Positions 6,037 through 59,299 of a stretch of DNA of 64,000 nt are shown piece by piece. The DNA is taken from the NCBI GenBank assembly GCA_009783145.1, contig WRHR01000001.1, positions 492 through 64,491 on the forward strand, in the 5' to 3' direction. The position numbers and the translations under genes are program-made. Under the pieces are notes generated by a model. The model was not told where the DNA came from. It saw only the letters and a program-made list of their open reading frames with translations, and made no database searches. This stretch comes from Alphaproteobacteria bacterium (GTDB taxonomy: Bacteria; Pseudomonadota; Alphaproteobacteria; Rs-D84). The stretch's first letter is position 1. The number at the start of each line of letters is the position of its first letter.

Positions 6037-6079
6037 TTTCCCAAATAATATTTTAACAAAATTTTTCTTTGAAAAATTT

Positions 6080-6152
6080 TGTCATTCCCGCGTAGGCGGG
6101 AACAGGGTCTATGAACCGCAAGCGCAAGCGAGCCAAAGGTCTTAAAGACCCA
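6080..6152. repeat. Family-B hairpin element (TGTCATTCCCGCGTAGGCGGGAAC ... GCAAGCGCAAGCGAGCC), homologous to the element at 36493-36560
   Basis: Palindrome ttcccgc-gtag-gcgggaa. The same about 70-bp sequence recurs at 36493-36560. Confidence 0.7.
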
Positions 6153-6205
6153 CTCTGGCCTGTGCCGGAGTGACAATTTTTTGTAAAACAAAAAATTGTG
6201 AAAAA

Positions 6206-7558: not shown

Positions 7559-7650
7559 CGTCACCCCGGCGAAGGCCAGGGTCCATTGCGTCGCAGGCAA
7601 TCAATAATGCTGCGCAGCAGTAGGTCCCGGCCTTCGCCGGGATGACGACT
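7559..7650. repeat. Family-B palindromic element with terminal inverted arms (GTCACCCCGGCGAAGGCCAGGGTCC ... GGTCCCGGCCTTCGCCGGGATGACG)
   Basis: Inverted-repeat arms seen directly. Related hairpins occur at 6082, 32018, 36496, 36967, 38416, 59035 and 62330. Confidence 0.7.
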
Positions 7651-17375: not shown

Positions 17376-17620
17376 CTGGATTGCTTCGCCCGTTGGGCTC
17401 GCAATGACAATAAGGAGTGTGTTCAAGGCACACAGCCTAAAACAAACGCCGACTTGTCATTGCGAGGAGCGCGTAAGCGCGACGCGGCAATCCAGTCAAT
17501 AAAAAGGAATCATACACTATTCACTGGATTGCTTCGTCCGTCTTCGCTTCGCTACGCCGCGACTCGCAATGACAATAAGGAGTGGATTGCGGAGCACAGC
17601 GAACAATGACAAGGGAGAGA
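17376..17620. repeat. Cluster of family-A MITE-like elements (TIR CTGGATTGCTTCGC...GCTCGCAATGACAA / TTGTCATTGCGAG...GCAATCCAG). One full copy and further half copies.
   Basis: Seen directly. Full copies also occur at 17941-18095, 29338-29455, 59300-59415 and 60186-60292. Confidence 0.75.
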
Positions 17621-17626
17621 ATAAAT

Positions 17627-17935
17627 ATGAAAGAACATCATTACTATGTCTATATTCTTTTCAACAAACGCAACGGGACTCTTTACACCGGCGTGACGCG
17701 CGACATATTTCGCAGAACTGAAGAGCACAAAAGCAAAAAGCCTTTTGGATTCGCAGAAAAACACGGGGCGGACAAATTAGGCTATATTGAAAGCTATCAA
17801 TATGTTAACGATGCCATCTTCCGTGAAAAACAAATCAAGGCCGGATCGCGAAAAAATAAGCTGAAACTAATCGAATCGATGAATCCCGAATGGAAAGACC
17901 TGTGGTACGAGCTTGGGAATTTTGTTTGGAGTTAG
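17627..17935 (+). CDS. Small GIY-YIG nuclease-family protein (URI-domain type)
   Basis: HYYVYILFNKRNGTLYTGVTRDIFRRTEEH... carries the GIY-YIG signature. It is a paralogue of 36548..36928. Confidence 0.7.
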   Translation: MKEHHYYVYILFNKRNGTLYTGVTRDIFRRTEEHKSKKPFGFAEKHGADKLGYIESYQYVNDAIFREKQIKAGSRKNKLKLIESMNPEWKDLWYELGNFVWS

Positions 17936-17940
17936 CAATA

Positions 17941-18095
17941 GTATTGTCATCGCGAGGCGCGAAGCAGCCGTGGCGACTGGATTGCCGCGCCCTGCGGGCT
18001 CGCAATGACAATTCGGTGTTTGTTTTAGGCTGTGTGCCCTTTTTGCTCTTCATTGTCATTGCGAGGAGCGCAAGCGACGAAGCAATCCAGTGAAT
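17941..18095. repeat. Family-A MITE-like element
   Basis: ...GACTGGATTGCCGCG...GCTCGCAATGACAATTCGGTGTTTGTTTTAGGCTGTGTGCCC...TTGTCATTGCGAGGAGCG...GCAATCCAGTG. Confidence 0.75.
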
Positions 18096-30345: not shown

Positions 30346-32463
30346 TTACTTTATCATCTCAGCAACTAATTCCGACAGCGGGCGGTTTATGAATTCCGGA
30401 TCGCCTTTGATTTCCGGCGCGCCTTTTTTAATCGCGGTATCGCATGGATGATCGTCTTCCAGCCAGTTGCTCAGCAGGTCCCCTGCCAGAAATCCTATGC
30501 CCGCGCCTGCGACCAAGGACAGCCCTCCGGTAAAAGGCGCAAGCAATATCATTCCGATGCCGGTCGTGGCGGCGGTGCGCTCTATAAGGCTGCGGCCGTT
30601 GAACTTGATATCGGGCTCGGCCATGTTTCCGGTGAACTCCATAGAATTCACTATATTGCCGGTAAAGCTGATTTTCAACCCCCGCACCGGCGTCGATACC
30701 ATCGACGCGTCCAAAGTTTCTTTTCCCAAATCCGCCCTGCCCGCCGCGCGCATATTCACGGCAGAGGTTTGCAAGGCGATTCCGCGCTCGGTCTCGACAA
30801 CTCCGCGACGGATTTTCAAGTTTACGACGGCGCATGAAACATCGACTTTGTCATACTTGTTCTTGGCGGTCACCATATCTTGCACGCTATGGCGCAGAGA
30901 TGTCAGAAAGTCCTGGCCGTACAAGTATTCCGCCGCGTCCGGCAGTGCGGTTCCGGCCCCAACGCTGCGCACTTGGAGGGGGCCGGCGACGCTTGCCATC
31001 AATTCGGACAAGTCCTTTCCGCGTCCTTGCAGATAAAACTCGAAGTCCGCCGGAAGGCCTGTTATGATATTTTTTTCGCCCACGCTTTCCAGTATCTTTC
31101 CCGCCTGAATGCCTTGCCCCATCCCCGCTCCGCGCGCGACAACCGCGCCTTCGTCGTCATAGGCGAGCAAAGCGGCGCGAACTTTTCCGCCCGCGAATCC
31201 GGCGTCCATACGAACGGAAAGCTCGCCGTCCTTAACATTCGCGCGCGCGCTTATATTCTCAACCGACAAGTTGCGATACATGACCAAGCTTGCGAGATCG
31301 ACCGCAATATCCGCGTTCGCAAGGTTCAGGTATTCGGAATAAAGCGGCGTATCCTTGAACACGTTCAGCGGCCGGTTCGGGCGCTTCCAAGGCGTCTTCG
31401 CGGTGCCGTACAGCTCTGTGAAAACTTCGCCCAATATGAATTTTTTAGATCTCAGCTTCGCGGATATCATGGGCTTCTTGCCGCCCCAACTGATATTGCC
31501 CGAAACCGACAAGTCGCTTTTTCCGAACGATATCGAAGACTGATGCAGCGTTAGCTTGCTGTGCCCCATACCGCCGGAAATGTTCAACGTCATCGGAGCA
31601 ATCTTCGGAACATCCGGATCAAAGCGTTTTAAAATCGCCTGGGCGTCCGCAATCTTTCCTTTGACTATAAAATCTATGGGCAGCTTTGACGTCTGCTCCA
31701 GCGCCAAGTTCGCGATAACCGGCGTCAGCTTGTTCGCGATCGCGACGCGCACGGGATAAACCTTGCGCGCCGCGTCCAAAGGCAGCAATGACGCGATGAA
31801 CGAATATTCCTGCCCGTCGTCCAGCGCGACACGCCCGACGTATTCTATATATCCGTCGGTCTTCTTATACCGCAGAAAGATTTCTTCCGCCTCGAACTCC
31901 GTCTTTCCGCCCGCGTCGATGAATACGAACTTCGGGTTTTCCATTTTGACGGAATCGATGCCCCAATCCGAATCAAAGGGAAATTTTGCCGGGCCGTCTT
32001 CTTGATTAGTCGTATTTGTCATTCCCGCGAAGGCGGGAACGCGCGAAGACTCCAAGGAATATTCGCCCTCGGCGTTTTCCTCCAGATATACCAGCGGGTT
32101 TACAAGTGTCAAATCGCTGACGGACGCCGTCGTACCCAAAAGCGAAAGAAGATTTATTCTCGCCTCGACCTGATCTATGCGGACGCCGTCTTCATTGGCG
32201 GCCCAATCCTTTGCCGGAATCGCTACGTCGGACAAGACGACGCGAGGCGTCAGCGAGAACTTCCAATGAATCTCGCCGCGGATTTCGACGGGCAGCCCGG
32301 TGGCGCTTGATAGAGCATGCGCGACCTCGCCGCGAAGGGTTTCAAGATTCACCCGCGACAGAGCGACAAACAGCGAAACGACCAGCCCGACAAGAACTAT
32401 CGCGAAGATGCGCGCAAAGCGAAAGAAGTCGCGCTTAAAAAATCGCATCAGTACAAATTTCAT
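30346..32463 (-). CDS. asmA: AsmA-family outer-membrane assembly protein
   Basis: N-terminal TM anchor, then the AsmA-like N-domain (SRVNLETLRGEVAHALSSATGLPVEIRGEIHWKFSLTPRVVLSDV) and a long beta-rich body. A family-B hairpin sits in frame at 32018-32044 (RVPAFAGMTN). Confidence 0.55.
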   Translation of the reverse strand: MKFVLMRFFKRDFFRFARIFAIVLVGLVVSLFVALSRVNLETLRGEVAHALSSATGLPVEIRGEIHWKFSLTPRVVLSDVAIPAKDWAANEDGVRIDQVEARINLLSLLGTTASVSDLTLVNPLVYLEENAEGEYSLESSRVPAFAGMTNTTNQEDGPAKFPFDSDWGIDSVKMENPKFVFIDAGGKTEFEAEEIFLRYKKTDGYIEYVGRVALDDGQEYSFIASLLPLDAARKVYPVRVAIANKLTPVIANLALEQTSKLPIDFIVKGKIADAQAILKRFDPDVPKIAPMTLNISGGMGHSKLTLHQSSISFGKSDLSVSGNISWGGKKPMISAKLRSKKFILGEVFTELYGTAKTPWKRPNRPLNVFKDTPLYSEYLNLANADIAVDLASLVMYRNLSVENISARANVKDGELSVRMDAGFAGGKVRAALLAYDDEGAVVARGAGMGQGIQAGKILESVGEKNIITGLPADFEFYLQGRGKDLSELMASVAGPLQVRSVGAGTALPDAAEYLYGQDFLTSLRHSVQDMVTAKNKYDKVDVSCAVVNLKIRRGVVETERGIALQTSAVNMRAAGRADLGKETLDASMVSTPVRGLKISFTGNIVNSMEFTGNMAEPDIKFNGRSLIERTAATTGIGMILLAPFTGGLSLVAGAGIGFLAGDLLSNWLEDDHPCDTAIKKGAPEIKGDPEFINRPLSELVAEMIK

Positions 32464-35856: not shown

Positions 35857-36423
35857 ATGGCAAGCTATACGGCAAACGATATGCGCGTGGGATGGGCGAT
35901 TTCGCATAACGGGAAAAGATATTCGGTGACAAGCATTACAAAGGTAAAGCCGGGCAAAGGCGGCGCGTTCGTCCAGGCGGACTTGCGCGATATCGACACG
36001 GGGAACAAGGGCGGCGACCGCTGGCGGTCCGAGGACAAGGTTGAAAAGCTGATGGTGGAAGACGTGGAGTGCCAGTTCCTGTACGGCGACGGGACGGACA
36101 GCTATTTTATGAACTTGTCGGATTACGAGCAATTTACGATGCCGTCTGAGGCGCTGGGGGAACAAGTGAAGTTCCTGCAGCCCGAGATGAAGGTCAAGGC
36201 TAATTTTGTGGAAGGCCACCCGATATCGATAACTCTGCCGAAAACGGTTATCGCGACGGTGGAAGAGACCGAGCCTGCGTTAAAAGGCCAGACTGCGGCG
36301 GGCGGGGGCAAGCCGGCCATATTGGACAACGGCATCCGCATAACAGTTCCTGTATTCGTGGAGATGGGCGAAAAAGTTGTGGTTAATACCGAAACTTTGG
36401 AGTACGTGGAGAGAGCGAAATAG
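35857..36423 (+). CDS. efp: Elongation factor P
   Basis: MASYTANDMRVGWAISHNGKRYSVTS...KPGKGGAFV...KVV. RBS gaaggag. Followed by a terminator. Confidence 0.9.
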   Translation: MASYTANDMRVGWAISHNGKRYSVTSITKVKPGKGGAFVQADLRDIDTGNKGGDRWRSEDKVEKLMVEDVECQFLYGDGTDSYFMNLSDYEQFTMPSEALGEQVKFLQPEMKVKANFVEGHPISITLPKTVIATVEETEPALKGQTAAGGGKPAILDNGIRITVPVFVEMGEKVVVNTETLEYVERAK

Positions 36424-36424
36424 G

Positions 36425-36452
36425 AAGCCCGCGCAAACGCGCGGGTTTTTTT
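36425..36452 (+). terminator. Rho-independent terminator GCCCGCGCAAACGCGCGGG followed by TTTTTTTG
   Basis: Seen directly 3' of efp. Confidence 0.75.
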
Positions 36453-36495
36453 GTTGGGGTGTTTTTATTTTTAACAAAAGTTTAAAAAAACTTTT

Positions 36496-36993
36496 GTCAC
36501 TCCTGCGTAGGCAGGAGTGGGCCCAGACAGTGCAAGCGTAAGCGAGCCTATAAACCTTTCACTATTATTTCCCCACAATCCAGCTTTCTAAAAAATTCTT
36601 CAGTCATTCCTTCTTTGGGCAAGATTTCATCCAATTCCGCCGCCAAATCCTTCCATTCCGGATTCATCGTTTCAATTAATCTATACTTCCAAGCCCGTTT
36701 CCATTTTTTAAGCGCTTTTTCTCTATCAATCGCCTTATCAACATATTGAAACCATTCGTAATAACCAAGTTTCTTCGTATTGTGTTCTTGCGAGTTTCCT
36801 TTTATCAATCCCAGTTTATGCTCCATAACACGACGTTCTAAATCGTTGGTCATACCGATGTACGTTGCCTGAGCGCGTTCATTGAACATGATATAAACCC
36901 AAAAATTGTATTCTTTGAATTCTTTCATAAAAAGAGAATAGCGAAGTTCGGAAATATTTTCAAGACCCACTCCTGCCTACGCAGGAGTGACAA
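36496..36993. mobile_element. Candidate mobile cassette: a GIY-YIG gene bounded by perfect 27-bp terminal inverted repeats TGTCACTCCTGCGTAGGCAGGAGTGGG. Each repeat is itself a family-B hairpin.
   Basis: The left TIR lies at 36496-36522. The right TIR at 36967-36993 is its exact reverse complement. The gene's start and stop codons abut the repeats. Confidence 0.45.
36548..36928 (-). CDS. Small GIY-YIG nuclease-family protein (URI-domain type)
   Basis: NFWVYIMFNERAQATYIGMTNDLERRVMEH...NPEWKDL. Paralogue of 17627..17935. Confidence 0.7.
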   Translation of the reverse strand: MKEFKEYNFWVYIMFNERAQATYIGMTNDLERRVMEHKLGLIKGNSQEHNTKKLGYYEWFQYVDKAIDREKALKKWKRAWKYRLIETMNPEWKDLAAELDEILPKEGMTEEFFRKLDCGEIIVKGL

Positions 36994-37024
36994 AAATTTT
37001 TCTTACGAAAAATTTTCTAAAATA

Positions 37025-37062
37025 AAAAATCGCCGCGATTGCGGCGATTTTTCATTCCGGTT
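37025..37062. terminator. Bidirectional terminator with the stem ATCGCCGCGATTGCGGCGAT, identical to 14032-14051. It lies just 3' of the DGR target gene.
   Basis: Seen directly. Confidence 0.7.
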
Positions 37063-37075
37063 ACTGTTTTTTCGT

Positions 37076-37810
37076 TTACCGTTTTCTCGCGTTCAGTTCT
37101 TTTACACGTTGCTCGACGAACCGGCGAACGCCCGCCCAGAGATCCGCGCCCTCGTTCAGGTTGCGCGACGAGTGGTCCAGCGCGATCTGCGCGCAATCCG
37201 AACGGGCCCTGTTCCAAGCGCCCAGCGAAACATCCTCATCTTTATCCTCAAACAATCTTGCTATCTCGCCTGTCTTCGTGTTATACAAATAATACATCGC
37301 TACTGCGCCGTCCGATTCCCCCAGCTTTGTCTTCTTTACTTTCTTTGCGTATGTGCTTTCCTTGATACCAATCCCAGGGCCGGCGGTTATTCCGCACAGT
37401 TTCCAATCTGAATCTTTCAGCTCCGGCTGATTATCCACGAACTTCTTCGCACGCTTCATTTCCGCCTGGTCTTTATATATGGTATGGTTATTGTCGCCAT
37501 ACGCCGTGTTCAGGTAGAAATTATCCGCATTGTTGCTGTATACTCCATCCCCACCGTTAATGATATCGTACGCATAGCCCACAAGTTGGCTGTTCTGGTT
37601 GATGATCGTCGTCATCTTTGCCATTGTTTCTTTCAGATCAAGGGGTTTTACCTGGGATTCCAACCGCTCTAACCTTGCGGCCAATTCTTTGTTTTGAATT
37701 TCCAAATTTTTGACTTTAATGCTCAAGCTTTTATGACCGCGAAAAAAGAACTCGTAAACTTTATTTTCCGCAATCTGCTGCTTCAACGTTTTCGGCTTTT
37801 CATTAGACAT
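37076..37810 (-). CDS. DGR variable (target) protein: coiled-coil N-terminus, with the C-terminal VR encoding an Asn-rich CLec/FGE-sulfatase-like ligand-binding tip
   Basis: The C-terminal 40 codons (LGAWNRARSDCAQIALDHSSRNLNEGADLWAGVRRFVEQ) form a 120-bp VR matching the TR at 38055-38174. All differences sit at TR adenines. Confidence 0.8.
   Translation of the reverse strand: MSNEKPKTLKQQIAENKVYEFFFRGHKSLSIKVKNLEIQNKELAARLERLESQVKPLDLKETMAKMTTIINQNSQLVGYAYDIINGGDGVYSNNADNFYLNTAYGDNNHTIYKDQAEMKRAKKFVDNQPELKDSDWKLCGITAGPGIGIKESTYAKKVKKTKLGESDGAVAMYYLYNTKTGEIARLFEDKDEDVSLGAWNRARSDCAQIALDHSSRNLNEGADLWAGVRRFVEQRVKELNARKR
37113..37232 (-). repeat. DGR variable repeat (VR), 120 bp, at the 3' end of the target gene
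   Basis: Reverse complement is 110/120 identical to the TR. The 10 mismatches all correspond to A in the TR (A to C/G/T). Confidence 0.85.
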
Positions 37811-38054
37811 TTTTATATCCTTTGGTTGTTTGCCCGCGAATTGTACCGCAACTTATTATTTTGTCAAGCAATTTTTGCCGTTTATTTTTGTCATTCCCAA
37901 AAATTCGCGCAAATTCCCCATTTTGACGGCTTTAATAATAAACATCTATAGAATTGTTTGTCAAATCGCAAAATATATCGCTGGCGCGAATCGGACTAAA
38001 TTCCCAGACTGGGCCACAGGCCGTATATCGCAAAAAACCGTTGGTTTGCCGCCG

Positions 38055-38174
38055 TGTTTCGCTGGGCGATTGGAACAGGAACCGTTCGAATTGCGCGCAG
38101 AACGCGCTGAACCACTCGTCGAACAACCTGAACGAGGGCACGAATCTCTGGGCGGGCGTTCGCCGGTTCGTCGA
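38055..38174 (+). repeat. DGR template repeat (TR), 120 bp and AAC-rich, in sense orientation with the RT
   Basis: TGTTTCGCTGGGCGATTGGAACAGGAACCGTTCGAATTGCGCGCAGAACGCGCTGAACCACTCGTCGAACAACCTGAACGAGGGCACGAATCTCTGGGCGGGCGTTCGCCGGTTCGTCGA. It encodes GDWNRNRSNCAQNALNHSSNNLNEGTNLWAGVRRF. Confidence 0.85.
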
Positions 38175-38509
38175 TACTTGTTGTCAAAAGTTTAGCCAAC
38201 CCGGGGGACGCGGGGTTTCCCCGCCATAGCCGACACACAAGGCTGGATATGCGACCTTCTTGGGGCCAGGCCCCGGGAAAACACGATAACCGGGAAAGCC
38301 GCCACCCTTCGCGCTGGCGCGCTACGGGTGGCAGGCCCCCTGTGGTGCAATAACGCAAACGGCCGCGGCTTTGATTCATTTTTACAAAATCGCAAAGTGA
38401 TTTTGTCATTGCGGTTCCGGCCTTCGCCGGAATGACAAACCGGGTCCGCAATGACAATTTTTTGTTTTACAAAAAATTGCAAAAATAAAAAACAAAAAAA
38501 GAACCAACT

Positions 38510-38809
38510 ATGACCGATGAAATCCATTCCTTTTCTGACTTCGCCGACAGCCGCCCTGCCCTGGACGGCAGAAAGCGCCGCATCGACGAAGTCCTGAACA
38601 AGCCCATCACCGTTCGCGGGCACAAAATCATCGCTTCGAAAAAAAACGCGGGCGAAATGTGCCTGCACTTGCAATTCGAAATGGACGGCGAGCTGTGCAT
38701 ACTCTTCACCGGCAGCGCCGTTCTTATCGACCAATGCGAAAAGTACGCCGATAAAATCCCGTTCCGCACCAGCATCGTCCGCATAGATAAATATTTTTCG
38801 TTCTCGTGA
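38510..38809 (+). CDS. DGR-associated accessory ORF (99 aa), translationally coupled to the RT. It is not obviously Avd-like.
   Basis: Its stop overlaps the RT ATG (ATGA). It lies between the TR and the RT, where accessory genes usually sit. The sequence looks beta-rich rather than a helical bundle. Confidence 0.4.
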   Translation: MTDEIHSFSDFADSRPALDGRKRRIDEVLNKPITVRGHKIIASKKNAGEMCLHLQFEMDGELCILFTGSAVLIDQCEKYADKIPFRTSIVRIDKYFSFS

Positions 38810-39822
38810 CTTCGCTTTGGTCTGATTTTATATCCCATGAAAATTTCGCGCTTGCGCTGAAAAATGCAACCCGCGGGCGCAAGACCAAGCCTTCTATCGC
38901 GCATTTCTTGAAAAACGCGGACGAGAATTTGGAAAACCTGCGCCAGCTTGTCATCGCCGGAGGGTTCAAGACCTCGCCCTATCGCACCATGGAAATCACG
39001 GATCCCAAGCGCCGCACAATATACATTCTTCCTTTCTGCCCCGACCGATTGCTTCATCACGCCTTGATGAATATTCTTGCCCCGATATGGGAGGCCGGAT
39101 TCATCCGAGATTCTTATGCCTGCATCACGGGACGCGGCCTGCACTCCGCCAGCCGGCGCACCATGCAATTCGTACGCCGGAATCAATACGTGCTGAAATG
39201 CGACATCAGAAAATTCTATCCCAGCATCGATCATAATATAATGTATGAAATCGTGAAGAAGTCTCTTCCGCCCGGCAACGAGAATATCCTGGCCATCCTG
39301 CATGACATTATATACTCAACTGCAGGCGGCAAGAACCTTCCCATAGGAAACCTCTGCAGCCAATGGATGGGAAACCTGTACCTGCACGAAATGGATATAT
39401 ATATAAAGCATGAATTGCGCGTGCGAGATTATTTGCGATACAGCGACGACTTTTGCCTGTTTTCAAACGACAATGCCCAACTGCGCGGGTGGCGCGACAA
39501 AATCCGAGAATTTCTGGCCGCGCGATTGGGGCTGATATTTTCCAAGGCCGAGATTTTTCCAGTGTCGAACGGCCTGGACTTTGTCGGATACCGGCATTTC
39601 AAGGATTTCGTCCTTTTGCGCAAGCGCACGTTGAAAAAGATAAAGTCGCGCATGCTGGAAATCGGCGAGATGAAAAATATAGCACCCGCAAACGCGGAGC
39701 GCATTCGCGGCCAGGTTGCCGCGGCGCACGGCTGGCTGAAATTCGCGTGCTCTTATAACCTGCGCAAAAAGCTGCGGTTCGAAACACTAAAGAAAAAAGT
39801 CGGGATTATTGTTTCCAGTTGA
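38806..39822 (+). CDS. Diversity-generating retroelement reverse transcriptase
   Basis: RT motifs 1-5 are present: RRTIYILPFCPDRLLHHAL, SYACITGRGLHSA, YVLKCDIRKFYPSIDH, the DGR-specific LPIGNLCSQWMGNLYLHEMD, and YLRYSDDFCLF (YxDD). Confidence 0.9.
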   Translation: MTSLWSDFISHENFALALKNATRGRKTKPSIAHFLKNADENLENLRQLVIAGGFKTSPYRTMEITDPKRRTIYILPFCPDRLLHHALMNILAPIWEAGFIRDSYACITGRGLHSASRRTMQFVRRNQYVLKCDIRKFYPSIDHNIMYEIVKKSLPPGNENILAILHDIIYSTAGGKNLPIGNLCSQWMGNLYLHEMDIYIKHELRVRDYLRYSDDFCLFSNDNAQLRGWRDKIREFLAARLGLIFSKAEIFPVSNGLDFVGYRHFKDFVLLRKRTLKKIKSRMLEIGEMKNIAPANAERIRGQVAAAHGWLKFACSYNLRKKLRFETLKKKVGIIVSS

Positions 39823-39870
39823 CAAATCATATTTATTTGCTAACTTGTTCGAAAACAAAGGATCAAACAG

Positions 39871-40563
39871 ATGCAATTAACATACGGTCCGTTCCAGGCG
39901 CTGGAACAGCAGGAATTCAAACAAGGGAACGGGAGCTTTGAAATCGAGGCTTTAAGATTCGCCAGATTGTTGCACAAACTGTCATTCGAAAGAAAAATCA
40001 ATTTCAACCACATTTTCAAGTTCTTATCCGCCAGGCCCGATAACGAATATTGGTTCGCCGACAACAACGGCAACCCTTTCGCCGGCATCATCGCCTTGGA
40101 ATACCACACCAAGGCCTTGGCGGACTCGCGATTCGAAATGCACAAGAAGTATGACGATCTGCGATTGGTTTTATCCGGAGAAACAACCATACTTCTTTTG
40201 GATAAAAGCCTGCTTAAATGGGGCAAATTCAATCAGGCGGACGATGTGGCCTTATCCGAAGAAAATTGCTTGGAAGCGCTTTGGCCGCGCAGCTTGCAAT
40301 TCGAGAAAATTCACACGTCGCCCGCGAATCAAAAGATTGACTCTGTCAAGCTTACGGCAAACGGGCTGAACGTTGGCGCGGAAGCGGGCTTGTTATACCA
40401 TATCCCCGCCGGGATGCCTCATGCGCCGGGAATGAATCCGGATAAGCTCGGCGCCTTTGATAAAGTAAGAGAACTGGTCGTAAAATACGACGCGCGGAAA
40501 AGAACTACTCATGACTGGCAAGACAAAGAAATAGGTTATTTTATCTCGGAAGTGAAACGTTAA
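39871..40563 (+). CDS. Hypothetical protein (230 aa) immediately downstream of the DGR RT
   Basis: Clean ORF with a terminator at 40565-40592. No family recognised. Confidence 0.4.
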   Translation: MQLTYGPFQALEQQEFKQGNGSFEIEALRFARLLHKLSFERKINFNHIFKFLSARPDNEYWFADNNGNPFAGIIALEYHTKALADSRFEMHKKYDDLRLVLSGETTILLLDKSLLKWGKFNQADDVALSEENCLEALWPRSLQFEKIHTSPANQKIDSVKLTANGLNVGAEAGLLYHIPAGMPHAPGMNPDKLGAFDKVRELVVKYDARKRTTHDWQDKEIGYFISEVKR

Positions 40564-40648
40564 AAATCCGTCGCGGCGCGACGGATTTTTTCTATTTGCC
40601 CACCCCTCGCCTTTATGCTATGCTTTCCCCGCTTATAAAGGAAAAAAT

Positions 40649-59010: not shown

Positions 59011-59299
59011 ATCATAGGTCGAACAGGAACAGCGCCGTTGTCACCCCGGCGCAGGCCGGGGCCTGAAAAGGAAGAAGACTGACAATGGCGGAGACAAAGA
59101 AAAAACTTGGGCCGAAACTGCTTTATACCGTGCGCCTAAAAATCGCCGGGTTGTTTAATAAGCGCAAGCCCGACAGACATTTCGGCAAGAATTTCATCAA
59201 TACCGTGCAGCAAGTCGTGGAGAAAAACAGCGCCGAACATCCGCGTTAGTTTTACTTGGTCCAAATATCTTTCCCGCCGCGGAAACTTATCCCTTTTTA

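Follow-up and report, generated by a model that had tools for sequence, protein, structure and literature searches.

A hairpin-flanked GIY-YIG nuclease gene in an uncultured alphaproteobacterium as a probable Ssn/SRM module

The gene and hairpins next to efp

We analysed a 64-kb stretch of contig WRHR01000001.1 from an uncultured alphaproteobacterium (hereafter the window, to which coordinates refer unless a locus is named) and characterized a short cassette within it, in which a small GIY-YIG nuclease gene lies between two inverted hairpin repeats, called the arms. The cassette is located between efp (35857-36423), which encodes elongation factor P (EF-P), and the target gene (37076-37810, minus strand) of a diversity-generating retroelement (DGR), as an initial annotation of this DNA had placed it. 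That annotation also described a perfect 27-bp inverted repeat around a single 126-aa GIY-YIG gene, and both features were borne out. The window contains exactly two copies of TGTCACTCCTGCGTAGGCAGGAGTGGG, one on the plus strand at 36495-36521 and one on the minus strand at 36966-36992 (1 nt below the earlier numbering, which was too high by that amount), and the gene (36548-36928, minus strand) is the only one between the two copies. The start and stop codons had been said to abut the repeats, which they do not; there are 26 nt between the stop codon and the left arm, and 37 nt between the ATG and the right arm. No third copy of TGTCACTCCTGCGTAGGCAGGAGTGGG was found in the window even at 3 mismatches, and none appeared in 100 dinucleotide-preserving shuffles in which up to 3 mismatches were allowed. 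The inverted repeat grows outward to 36 nt at 97% identity (36486-36521 / 36966-37001) and, with short gaps, to approximately 60 nt (36462-36521 / 36966-37028), giving a whole unit of approximately 570 bp.

Each arm is itself a palindromic hairpin, CACTCCTGC-GTAG-GCAGGAGTG, with a 9-bp stem, and its orientation is given only by the unpaired TGTC tag, the loop and the GGG tail. The left arm, which reads TGTC-ACTCCTGC-GTAG-GCAGGAGT-GGG, lies 3' of the gene, and its exact reverse complement forms the right arm, 5' of the gene; in both, the tag points outward. A second, AT-rich hairpin, recognised from its inverted repeat and fold, accompanies each arm. On the left, ACAAAAGTTT-AAAA-AAACTTTTGT (36474-36497, plus strand) abuts and overlaps the TGTC tag, and on the right AAAATTTTTC-TTAC-GAAAAATTTT (36993-37016, minus strand) lies outside the arm. 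When folded as single-stranded DNA (ssDNA), each cassette end forms two adjoining hairpins, the arm and the AT-rich hairpin of 10 bp, with z-scores of -6.5 for the left end and -8.5 for the right end. The search of Rfam around the cassette gave no match above the gathering score, which sets a known structured RNA aside as an explanation.

The 126-aa protein has PF01541 as its only Pfam match (residues 23-96, E 2e-16), and searches of NCBIfam, PADLOC and PHROGs returned only sub-threshold matches. Its AlphaFold2 model (pLDDT 90) is most similar in the PDB to GIY-YIG folds, namely 1zg2, Slx1 and the N-terminal domain of UvrC; by sequence search no solved structure of the family was found, the best GIY-YIG match being 1zg2 at E 0.64. 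The protein is 100% identical to one (P0001) from a metagenome-assembled genome (MAG) of Alphaproteobacteria, on a 129-kb contig, and many further homologs are 50 to 78% identical and typically 106-109 aa long. These homologs share the motifs vYIL, YiGvTnDL, EHK and REK-lKkWkRaWKyrLIE-mNP-W-DL, and their N-termini back the ATG start that gives 126 aa. An alternative 140-aa reading begins at a GTG at 36970, inside the right hairpin. Gene callers pick this GTG start, and thus 140 aa, on two other contigs of the same species that have an identical EF-P (L081, 4692-5114; L082, 1294-1716).

Relationship to the Ssn nucleases

The Ssn nucleases, described in 2025, provide a framework for the cassette. 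NMV_0044 of Neisseria meningitidis, named SsnA, is a 94-aa single-domain GIY-YIG enzyme (cd10448) that requires Y6, Y17 and E64. It binds its hairpin repeat, NTS (CGTCATTCCCGCGMAVGCGGGAATCYRG), only when this is ssDNA, and cuts ssDNA a few nucleotides upstream of this motif, on the sense strand alone (Chenal et al., Nat Commun 2025, PMC11893778). The gene family was picked out among all N. meningitidis proteins by a genome-wide screen, a motif variant (NTSvar) was described alongside NTS, and homologs of three other species were reported to cut their own motifs (PMC11893778). Among ssn homologs, taken as those with E < 1e-10 to SsnA, at least one hairpin motif of this kind (Ssn-related motif, SRM) lies near 71% of the genes and SRMs lie on both sides of 42%, and the 'NTS-ssnA-NTS' layout was discussed as being similar to an insertion sequence (IS) (PMC11893778).

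The window gene is of the ssn type and encodes a single-domain GIY-YIG nuclease. Its residues Y12, Y23 and E70 show the same 11- and 58-residue spacings as Y6, Y17 and E64 of SsnA, and all three are invariant or nearly so in the homolog alignment (A1). In addition, a 94-aa homolog from Sideroxydans (L072) shares 47% identity with the protein (E 1e-27); this homolog has Y6, Y17 and E64, and its gene has an exact match to the N. meningitidis NTS consensus on either side.

The association between gene and hairpins was examined in homologous loci. The scan of GTDB species representatives yielded more than 556 loci, of which the best 80 (L001-L080) were studied; these belong to Alphaproteobacteria, Chloroflexota, Acidobacteriota, Zixibacteria, KSB1, TM6, groups of the candidate phyla radiation, Bacteroidota and others. 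In the 78 loci whose flanks were long enough, the 300-bp segments upstream and downstream of the gene were compared and their best inverted repeat was scored; as a control, the geometry was kept but moved by 2 to 4 kb inside the same loci. The flanking inverted repeat lay above the 95th percentile of the shifted-position controls in 56 loci, with a median score of 18 at the real positions versus 9 in the controls. The repeated arm is almost always of the form (T/C)GTCAT-stem-loop-stem-tail, for example GTCATTCCCGCGAAGGCGGGAATCCA, and in these 56 loci the tag points outward in 35 and inward in 5 and is unrecognisable in 16. Within the closest clade, which consists of gut-type Alphaproteobacteria including Ca. 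Enterousia (L001-L018), the arms read TTT-TGTCAT-stem-AAT-AGGGyCT. Here the paired arms of a locus share one stem variant (TCCTGCG, TCCCGCG, TGCGGAC or GGCGGGC), and the variants differ between loci.

We therefore consider it very probable that the region is an Ssn/SRM module, with a gene for a small single-domain endonuclease of the Ssn family and with arms that are its cognate hairpins, of a clade-specific SRM variant. The cassette is a fresh example of the Ssn nucleases published in 2025 and not a new kind of cassette, and its arms, judged by their sequence, appear comparable to NTSvar (PMC11893778).

Several observations weigh against this assignment. The published SRM search pattern, HGTCWYN(0-2)YYVSBRHN(0-5)WNVSBRGN(0-2)RNCYNB, is matched by none of the 18 closest loci, and the cassette arms depart from it through a T at a V position (a T:A stem pair) and the tail GGG; a clade-specific hairpin variant with the tail GGG or AGGG in place of CYRG, and with the T:A stem pair, escapes the pattern for these reasons. 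The base that follows the palindrome is G in the arms, and a C at this position is the most important for binding by SsnA (PMC11893778), so the binding specificity of the window protein may differ. The last 27 residues of the protein form a variable C-terminal tail that is missing in the 94-aa enzymes. The family placement was reached through the Sideroxydans homolog as a proxy for SsnA of N. meningitidis and for cd10448. Finally, a role in lowering transformation by NTS-bearing DNA has been shown for SsnA only in Neisseria (PMC11893778).

By analogy with the four characterised enzymes, we infer the ssDNA specificity, the cut position and the biological role of the window protein as follows. 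Whenever the region becomes single-stranded, an arm would fold and the protein would bind the hairpin, reading both the TGTC tag and the stem sequence. It would then cut the strand a few nucleotides 5' of the tag, at approximately 36488-36494 on the plus strand and approximately 36993-36999 on the minus strand, that is, within the AT-rich hairpins; the left AT-rich hairpin would thus cover the site, a few nucleotides 5' of the motif, where Ssn enzymes cut. Since the same hairpins are scattered as dimers and single units, the enzyme would have many chromosomal targets. The other hairpins of the genome would be targets of one or other of two paralogs (the second is described below), and hairpin-bearing ssDNA would be fragmented. 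The most likely role would be the processing or restriction of hairpin-bearing ssDNA, for example incoming or replicating strands, and hence the control of recombination.

Upstream of the gene, a promoter-like site was recognised by consensus match only (36935-36963, minus strand), with -35 TTGAAA at 36963 and -10 TATTCT ending at 36935. It falls within GGGTCTTGAAAA, which lies next to the upstream arm and is conserved in L006, L009, L010, L014 and L018; the putative promoter may be the reason for this conservation.

Some of the homologous loci show further arrangements. A different inverted repeat, AGAACCCGGAACCCACGACCGGG, which has no TGTC tag, flanks the genes of L029, L039, L056, L071 and L075 (Bosea, Chelatococcus and related Rhizobiales) and may be another motif class overlooked by the published pattern. 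In L003, L004, L005, L008 and L011, shared neighbours are found on opposite sides of the ssn gene or reversed relative to it, as if rearrangements had broken the DNA at the hairpin-flanked gene. The downstream hairpins of these loci are direct and not inverted. The downstream arm and its adjoining flank are duplicated in tandem in L014 (5333-5440), L015 (2899-3010) and L016 (5366-5500).

Other hairpins of the window and the question of mobility

A scan for TGTCA-tagged hairpins found units at 6080-6107 (+), 6149-6175 (-), 7559-7586 (+), 7620-7647 (-), 32017-32041 (+), 38411-38437 (-) and 59039-59065 (+). The published SRM pattern has 6 matches in the window versus 0.2 expected; five are hairpins other than the cassette arms and one is probably a chance match.

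The element at 6050-6200 is a gene-less, two-ended derivative with an AT-rich hairpin and an SRM at each end (SRMs at 6080-6107, plus strand, and 6149-6175, minus strand; alignment A2, fold z -7.5). It keeps a piece of the 3' untranslated region of the cassette, GCAAGCGNAAGCGAGC, which is present in the window only at 6118 and 36532, together with the 5' piece GGGTCTTnAA and the AT-rich leader (alignment A2). From its sequence, it looks like the cassette without the open reading frame (ORF). The initial annotation had seen in the left cassette end a homolog of a solo element at 6080-6152; the homology holds, and the element is not solo, being a gene-less dimer that matches both ends of the cassette. 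A second gene-less SRM dimer, with CGTCACCCCGGCGAAGGCCAGGGTCCAT on the plus strand and CGTCATCCCGGCGAAGGCCGGGACCTAC on the minus strand, lies at 7559-7647 (fold z -9.6). Both of its hairpins fit the published pattern, and the one at 7559 has a CCA-like tail, versus GGG in the cassette arms. A solo canonical SRM, TGTCACCCCGGCGCAGGCCGGGGCCTG, which also fits the pattern, is present at 59039-59065 (plus strand).

Two further hairpins have a particular setting. A single SRM at 32014-32040 (plus strand) lies within a gene of the AsmA family (30346-32463, minus strand), where it is read in frame as VPAFAGMTN. The inserted unit is ATT followed by TGTCATTCCCGCGAAGGCGGGAAC, 27 nt in all, consisting of the hairpin and 3 nt ahead of its tag, and it adds nine residues. 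Protein alignments show a gap at these residues of 9 positions in the L083 ortholog and of 7 in the L086 ortholog, and because these orthologs are without the hairpin, it was gained in this lineage; it is the clearest case of gain here, more so than the cassette. The unit appears to begin 3 nt 5' of the tag, close to where Ssn enzymes are reported to cut, with a gap placement that is uncertain by a codon or two. The other is a composite hairpin at 38404-38479 (minus strand; fold z -6.0), with outer strands TGTCATTGCGG...CCGCAATGACA, an inner canonical SRM (38437-38411) and an AT-rich hairpin; it is located in the DGR, in the spacer between the template repeat (TR) and the operon of ORF99 and the reverse transcriptase (RT).

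Hairpins of this kind correspond to a superfamily of repetitive extragenic palindromes (REPs) tagged with CGTC or TGTC, which has stems of 8 to 9 bp, loops of 4 to 5 nt and a short tail, usually CCA, predominates in Alphaproteobacteria, often forms inverted dimers and is sometimes found in genes (Di Nocera et al., BMC Genomics 2013, PMC3733652). The arms could be two independent hairpins of the REP type, which serve as terminators or mRNA stabilisers and stand beside an unrelated small gene by chance, a possibility already raised in the initial annotation. Hairpins of the same family do occur without a gene at five other places in the window (6080-6175, 7559-7647, 32014-32040, 38404-38479 and 59039-59065), and the cassette sits between convergent and tandem genes, a usual site for REPs (PMC3733652). 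However, the two arms are identical at 27 of 27 positions, yet unlike every other copy in the window, and the arms co-vary within loci in L001-L018. Matching inverted hairpins flank the gene in most of the homologous loci, across phyla, and the screen in N. meningitidis singled out this very gene family (PMC11893778). The association with the gene is clearly non-random, which means that the hairpins are not independent of it. This explanation is already contradicted by the conserved association, and we regard it as very improbable.

The window also contains a second Ssn module (17376-18090), with a paralogous gene at 17627-17935 (plus strand). Its product, of 102 aa, is 48% identical to that of the first gene and 52% identical (E 2e-30) to the NTS-flanked Sideroxydans homolog, and carries the motif KAGSRKNK in place of KKWKRAWK. 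The hairpins of this module belong to a longer, different class (TGTCATTGCGAGG...CAATCCAG) and lie at 17376-17409 (-), 17455-17495 (+), 17524-17574 (-), 17945-18010 and 18054-18090 (+), with an extra inverted repeat around the paralog at 17426-17448 / 18018-18038. As to whether other GIY-YIG copies carry the same terminal repeats, the layout recurs in the homologous loci, whereas the paralog in the window has the different class.

The DGR beside the cassette has its variable repeat (VR) at 37113-37232 and its TR at 38055-38174, each of 120 nt, and all 10 differences between them are at adenines of the TR. The TR is on the strand of the RT and the VR on the opposite strand, so that the two are in inverted orientation. 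The DGR looks active, and the cassette lies 85 bp from the end of its VR, which raises the question of whether the cassette is an accessory of the DGR, for example a nuclease acting on the single-stranded cDNA or on the target site. The related composite hairpin in the spacer between TR and RT and the joint absence of cassette and DGR in the relative L083 (see below) would agree with this. In contrast, the 80 homologous loci contain no RT or target-gene homolog within 5 kb, neither the second paralog nor any relative has a DGR, and the family is explained without one. The link to the DGR was rejected on the first of these grounds, and we consider it extremely unlikely.

The presence of the cassette at this site is specific to the lineage. 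When empty sites were sought with the identical EF-P, the only contigs returned were of this species (L081 and L082); they carry the cassette at the same site, so all three contigs are alike. Relatives with 85-89% identical EF-P (L083-L088 and L151-L157) were also used to search for empty sites, and in the efp contexts examined no GIY-YIG gene adjoins efp. The cassette is therefore not syntenic in relatives, whereas synteny in all of them had been named in the initial annotation as a refuting case. In L083 the gene order is fully syntenic (AsmA, pseudouridine synthase, a pilin-like gene, uvrC, efp, 119 bp, trxB, dnaN, ppa), and efp and trxB are directly adjacent (4568-4686 of L083 between them), whereas the window has a 4.1-kb block between these genes (36424-40648) with the cassette, the DGR and a DUF386-like ORF (39871-40563). 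The empty-site check proposed earlier thus gave an empty site, but since it is without the whole block, including the DGR, no boundary at the repeats is visible. The other relatives are rearranged around efp and have no GIY-YIG gene or DGR there, so excision or insertion bounded by the repeats is not demonstrable. These relatives also have almost no tagged hairpins in the 6 to 10 kb available for each, versus at least 10 in the 64-kb window. An Ssn homolog is found directly upstream of efp in L066 (5001-5894), a Saccharibacteria MAG with a 31% identical EF-P; this adjacency is probably a coincidence.

In the initial annotation, the cassette was described as a minimal mobile or homing unit. The IS-like layout is real and recurs in 56 of 78 loci across phyla, but the unit is not new, having been published as 'NTS-ssnA-NTS', and there is no evidence of autonomous movement, given a single copy, no target-site duplication and a nearest homolog at 78%. 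A stronger form of the idea is that the approximately 570-bp unit is a currently active autonomous mobile element, whose GIY-YIG protein mobilises the unit and, in trans, the gene-less dimers and single hairpins, as a GIY-YIG counterpart of the RAYT/REPIN systems. The layout and the inverted repeat of approximately 60 nt would be expected of such an element. So would the 6050-6200 derivative, which keeps both cassette ends plus internal sequence that is not part of a hairpin, and the 27-nt hairpin inserted in frame in AsmA and missing in two orthologs. The absence of the cassette next to efp in every examined relative, the scarcity of hairpins there and the ssn gene neighbourhood, which differs among most of L001-L018, also speak for movement.

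On the other hand, the cassette is single-copy, with a nearest homolog that is 78% identical and a paralog in the window that is 48% identical, and this gives no sign of recent transposition. No target-site duplication was found at the borders of the cassette or of the dimers, and the cassette is at the same site in all three contigs of the species. Some sub-groups of L001-L018 are syntenic around the gene, and its syntenic position in several sub-lineages suggests vertical inheritance. The indel seen in L083 includes the DGR, and the repeats do not form its boundaries. No covalent intermediate arises when GIY-YIG enzymes hydrolyse DNA, and so they could not carry out strand transfer alone. 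Moreover, inverted arms combined with cutting on the sense strand only, as in SsnA, would give one cut per strand, just outside the cassette, and not two on one strand as in IS200/IS605. Current activity as an autonomous element is, in our view, unlikely.

A related proposal concerns the origin of the repeats. CGTC/TGTC REPs seem to have no dedicated transposase (PMC3733652), and the spread of hairpins by an Ssn cassette was put forward in the 2025 paper as no more than a hypothesis (PMC11893778). The hairpin-ssn-hairpin unit might be, or might until recently have been, the autonomous master copy of a GIY-YIG-driven repeat system, in which the nuclease generates and spreads gene-less dimers and 27-nt units, including in-frame insertions in genes, and would then be the missing enzyme for these REPs; we regard this as conceivable, though doubtful. 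The dimer that preserves internal cassette sequence, the clean 27-nt gain in AsmA and the lineage-specific expansion of the hairpins are compatible with it. Mobility in the past is plausible. For the Ssn/SRM module proposed here, the IS-like layout may be the relic of an ancestrally mobile element that is now maintained by the host.

Significance and comparison with known systems

Our analysis extends the Ssn family to an uncultured alphaproteobacterial lineage, and the relatives analysed come from animal-gut metagenomes. It also indicates that the published SRM pattern misses a whole subclade with the tail AGGG and variable stems, so genome surveys that use the pattern under-count such systems. 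The two divergent pairs of nuclease and hairpin in the window could give orthogonal specificities for cutting ssDNA, which may be of biotechnological interest. How the hairpins spread has been a question since CGTC REPs were reported to be without an enzyme of their own, and concrete cases are provided by the gene-less dimer that retains the two cassette ends and by the 27-nt insertion in AsmA. The appropriate annotation label is Ssn/SRM module, and not transposon or homing endonuclease.

Several other labels were tried and set aside. An insertion sequence or autonomous transposon was rejected, as the cassette, although it has inverted repeats, is a single copy without a recognised transposase or direct repeats at its borders. 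A REPtron was rejected because a GIY-YIG nuclease, and no HUH/Y1 transposase, lies between the repeats. Homing endonucleases of the I-TevI type were rejected as well, since the match to TIGR01453 is below the cutoff (18.7 bits versus 56, covering only the first 37 residues of the domain) and there is no extra domain and no intron or phage setting. Carriage by phages is not supported, with approximately 22 good homologs in 2.9 million viral contigs.

The cassette shares with free-standing or intron-encoded homing endonucleases such as I-TevI and the Seg proteins the GIY-YIG catalytic domain and a small gene that is seemingly inserted between host genes. However, its protein has no DNA-binding domain and no intron or phage context, and the Ssn family cuts repeat-bearing ssDNA and not an empty allele; the ssDNA-only, one-strand cutting of characterised members is a poor fit with classical homing of a double-stranded target. 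As in IS200/IS605 elements, hairpin ends would be recognised as ssDNA and cleaved at a distance from the hairpin. Unlike these elements, the cassette has no Y1 transposase (Y1_Tnp had no match in Pfam or NCBIfam) and no multiple identical copies, and with inverted copies of one hairpin the recognised strands would differ at the two ends.

The resemblance to REPtrons lies in a nuclease gene, present once, between inverted copies of a genomic hairpin, in gene-less dimers elsewhere and in mostly vertical inheritance with lineage-specific expansion. The cassette differs in that its protein is a hydrolytic GIY-YIG enzyme and not HUH/Y1, its tag is TGTC and not GTAG, and covalent strand-transfer chemistry is absent. 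With the CGTC/TGTC REPs, the window hairpins have in common the unpaired TGTC or CGTC tag, a stem of 8 to 9 bp and a 4-nt loop (TGTC, 9 bp and GTAG in the arms), as well as inverted dimers (6080-6175 and 7559-7647), occasional in-frame copies within genes and a predominance in Alphaproteobacteria. In contrast to these REPs, the cassette arms are without the usual CCA tail and the hairpins, like those of the 2025 paper, flank a GIY-YIG gene.

The system that compares best is Ssn/SsnA itself, and here too there are differences. The window module has AT-rich hairpins next to the tag, the tail GGG or AGGG versus CYRG and a T:A stem pair; its protein has a C-terminal tail of 27 aa, its host is an uncultured gut-type alphaproteobacterium, and two divergent Ssn/hairpin pairs are present in one 64-kb stretch. 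Nevertheless, both systems consist of a small single-domain GIY-YIG protein with identical spacing of Tyr, Tyr and Glu, whose gene lies between inverted hairpins of the form (T/C)GTCA-stem-loop-stem-tail with the tag outward, and in both the same hairpins are dispersed through the genome. The window protein is, moreover, clearly homologous to proteins whose genes are flanked by exact NTS repeats.

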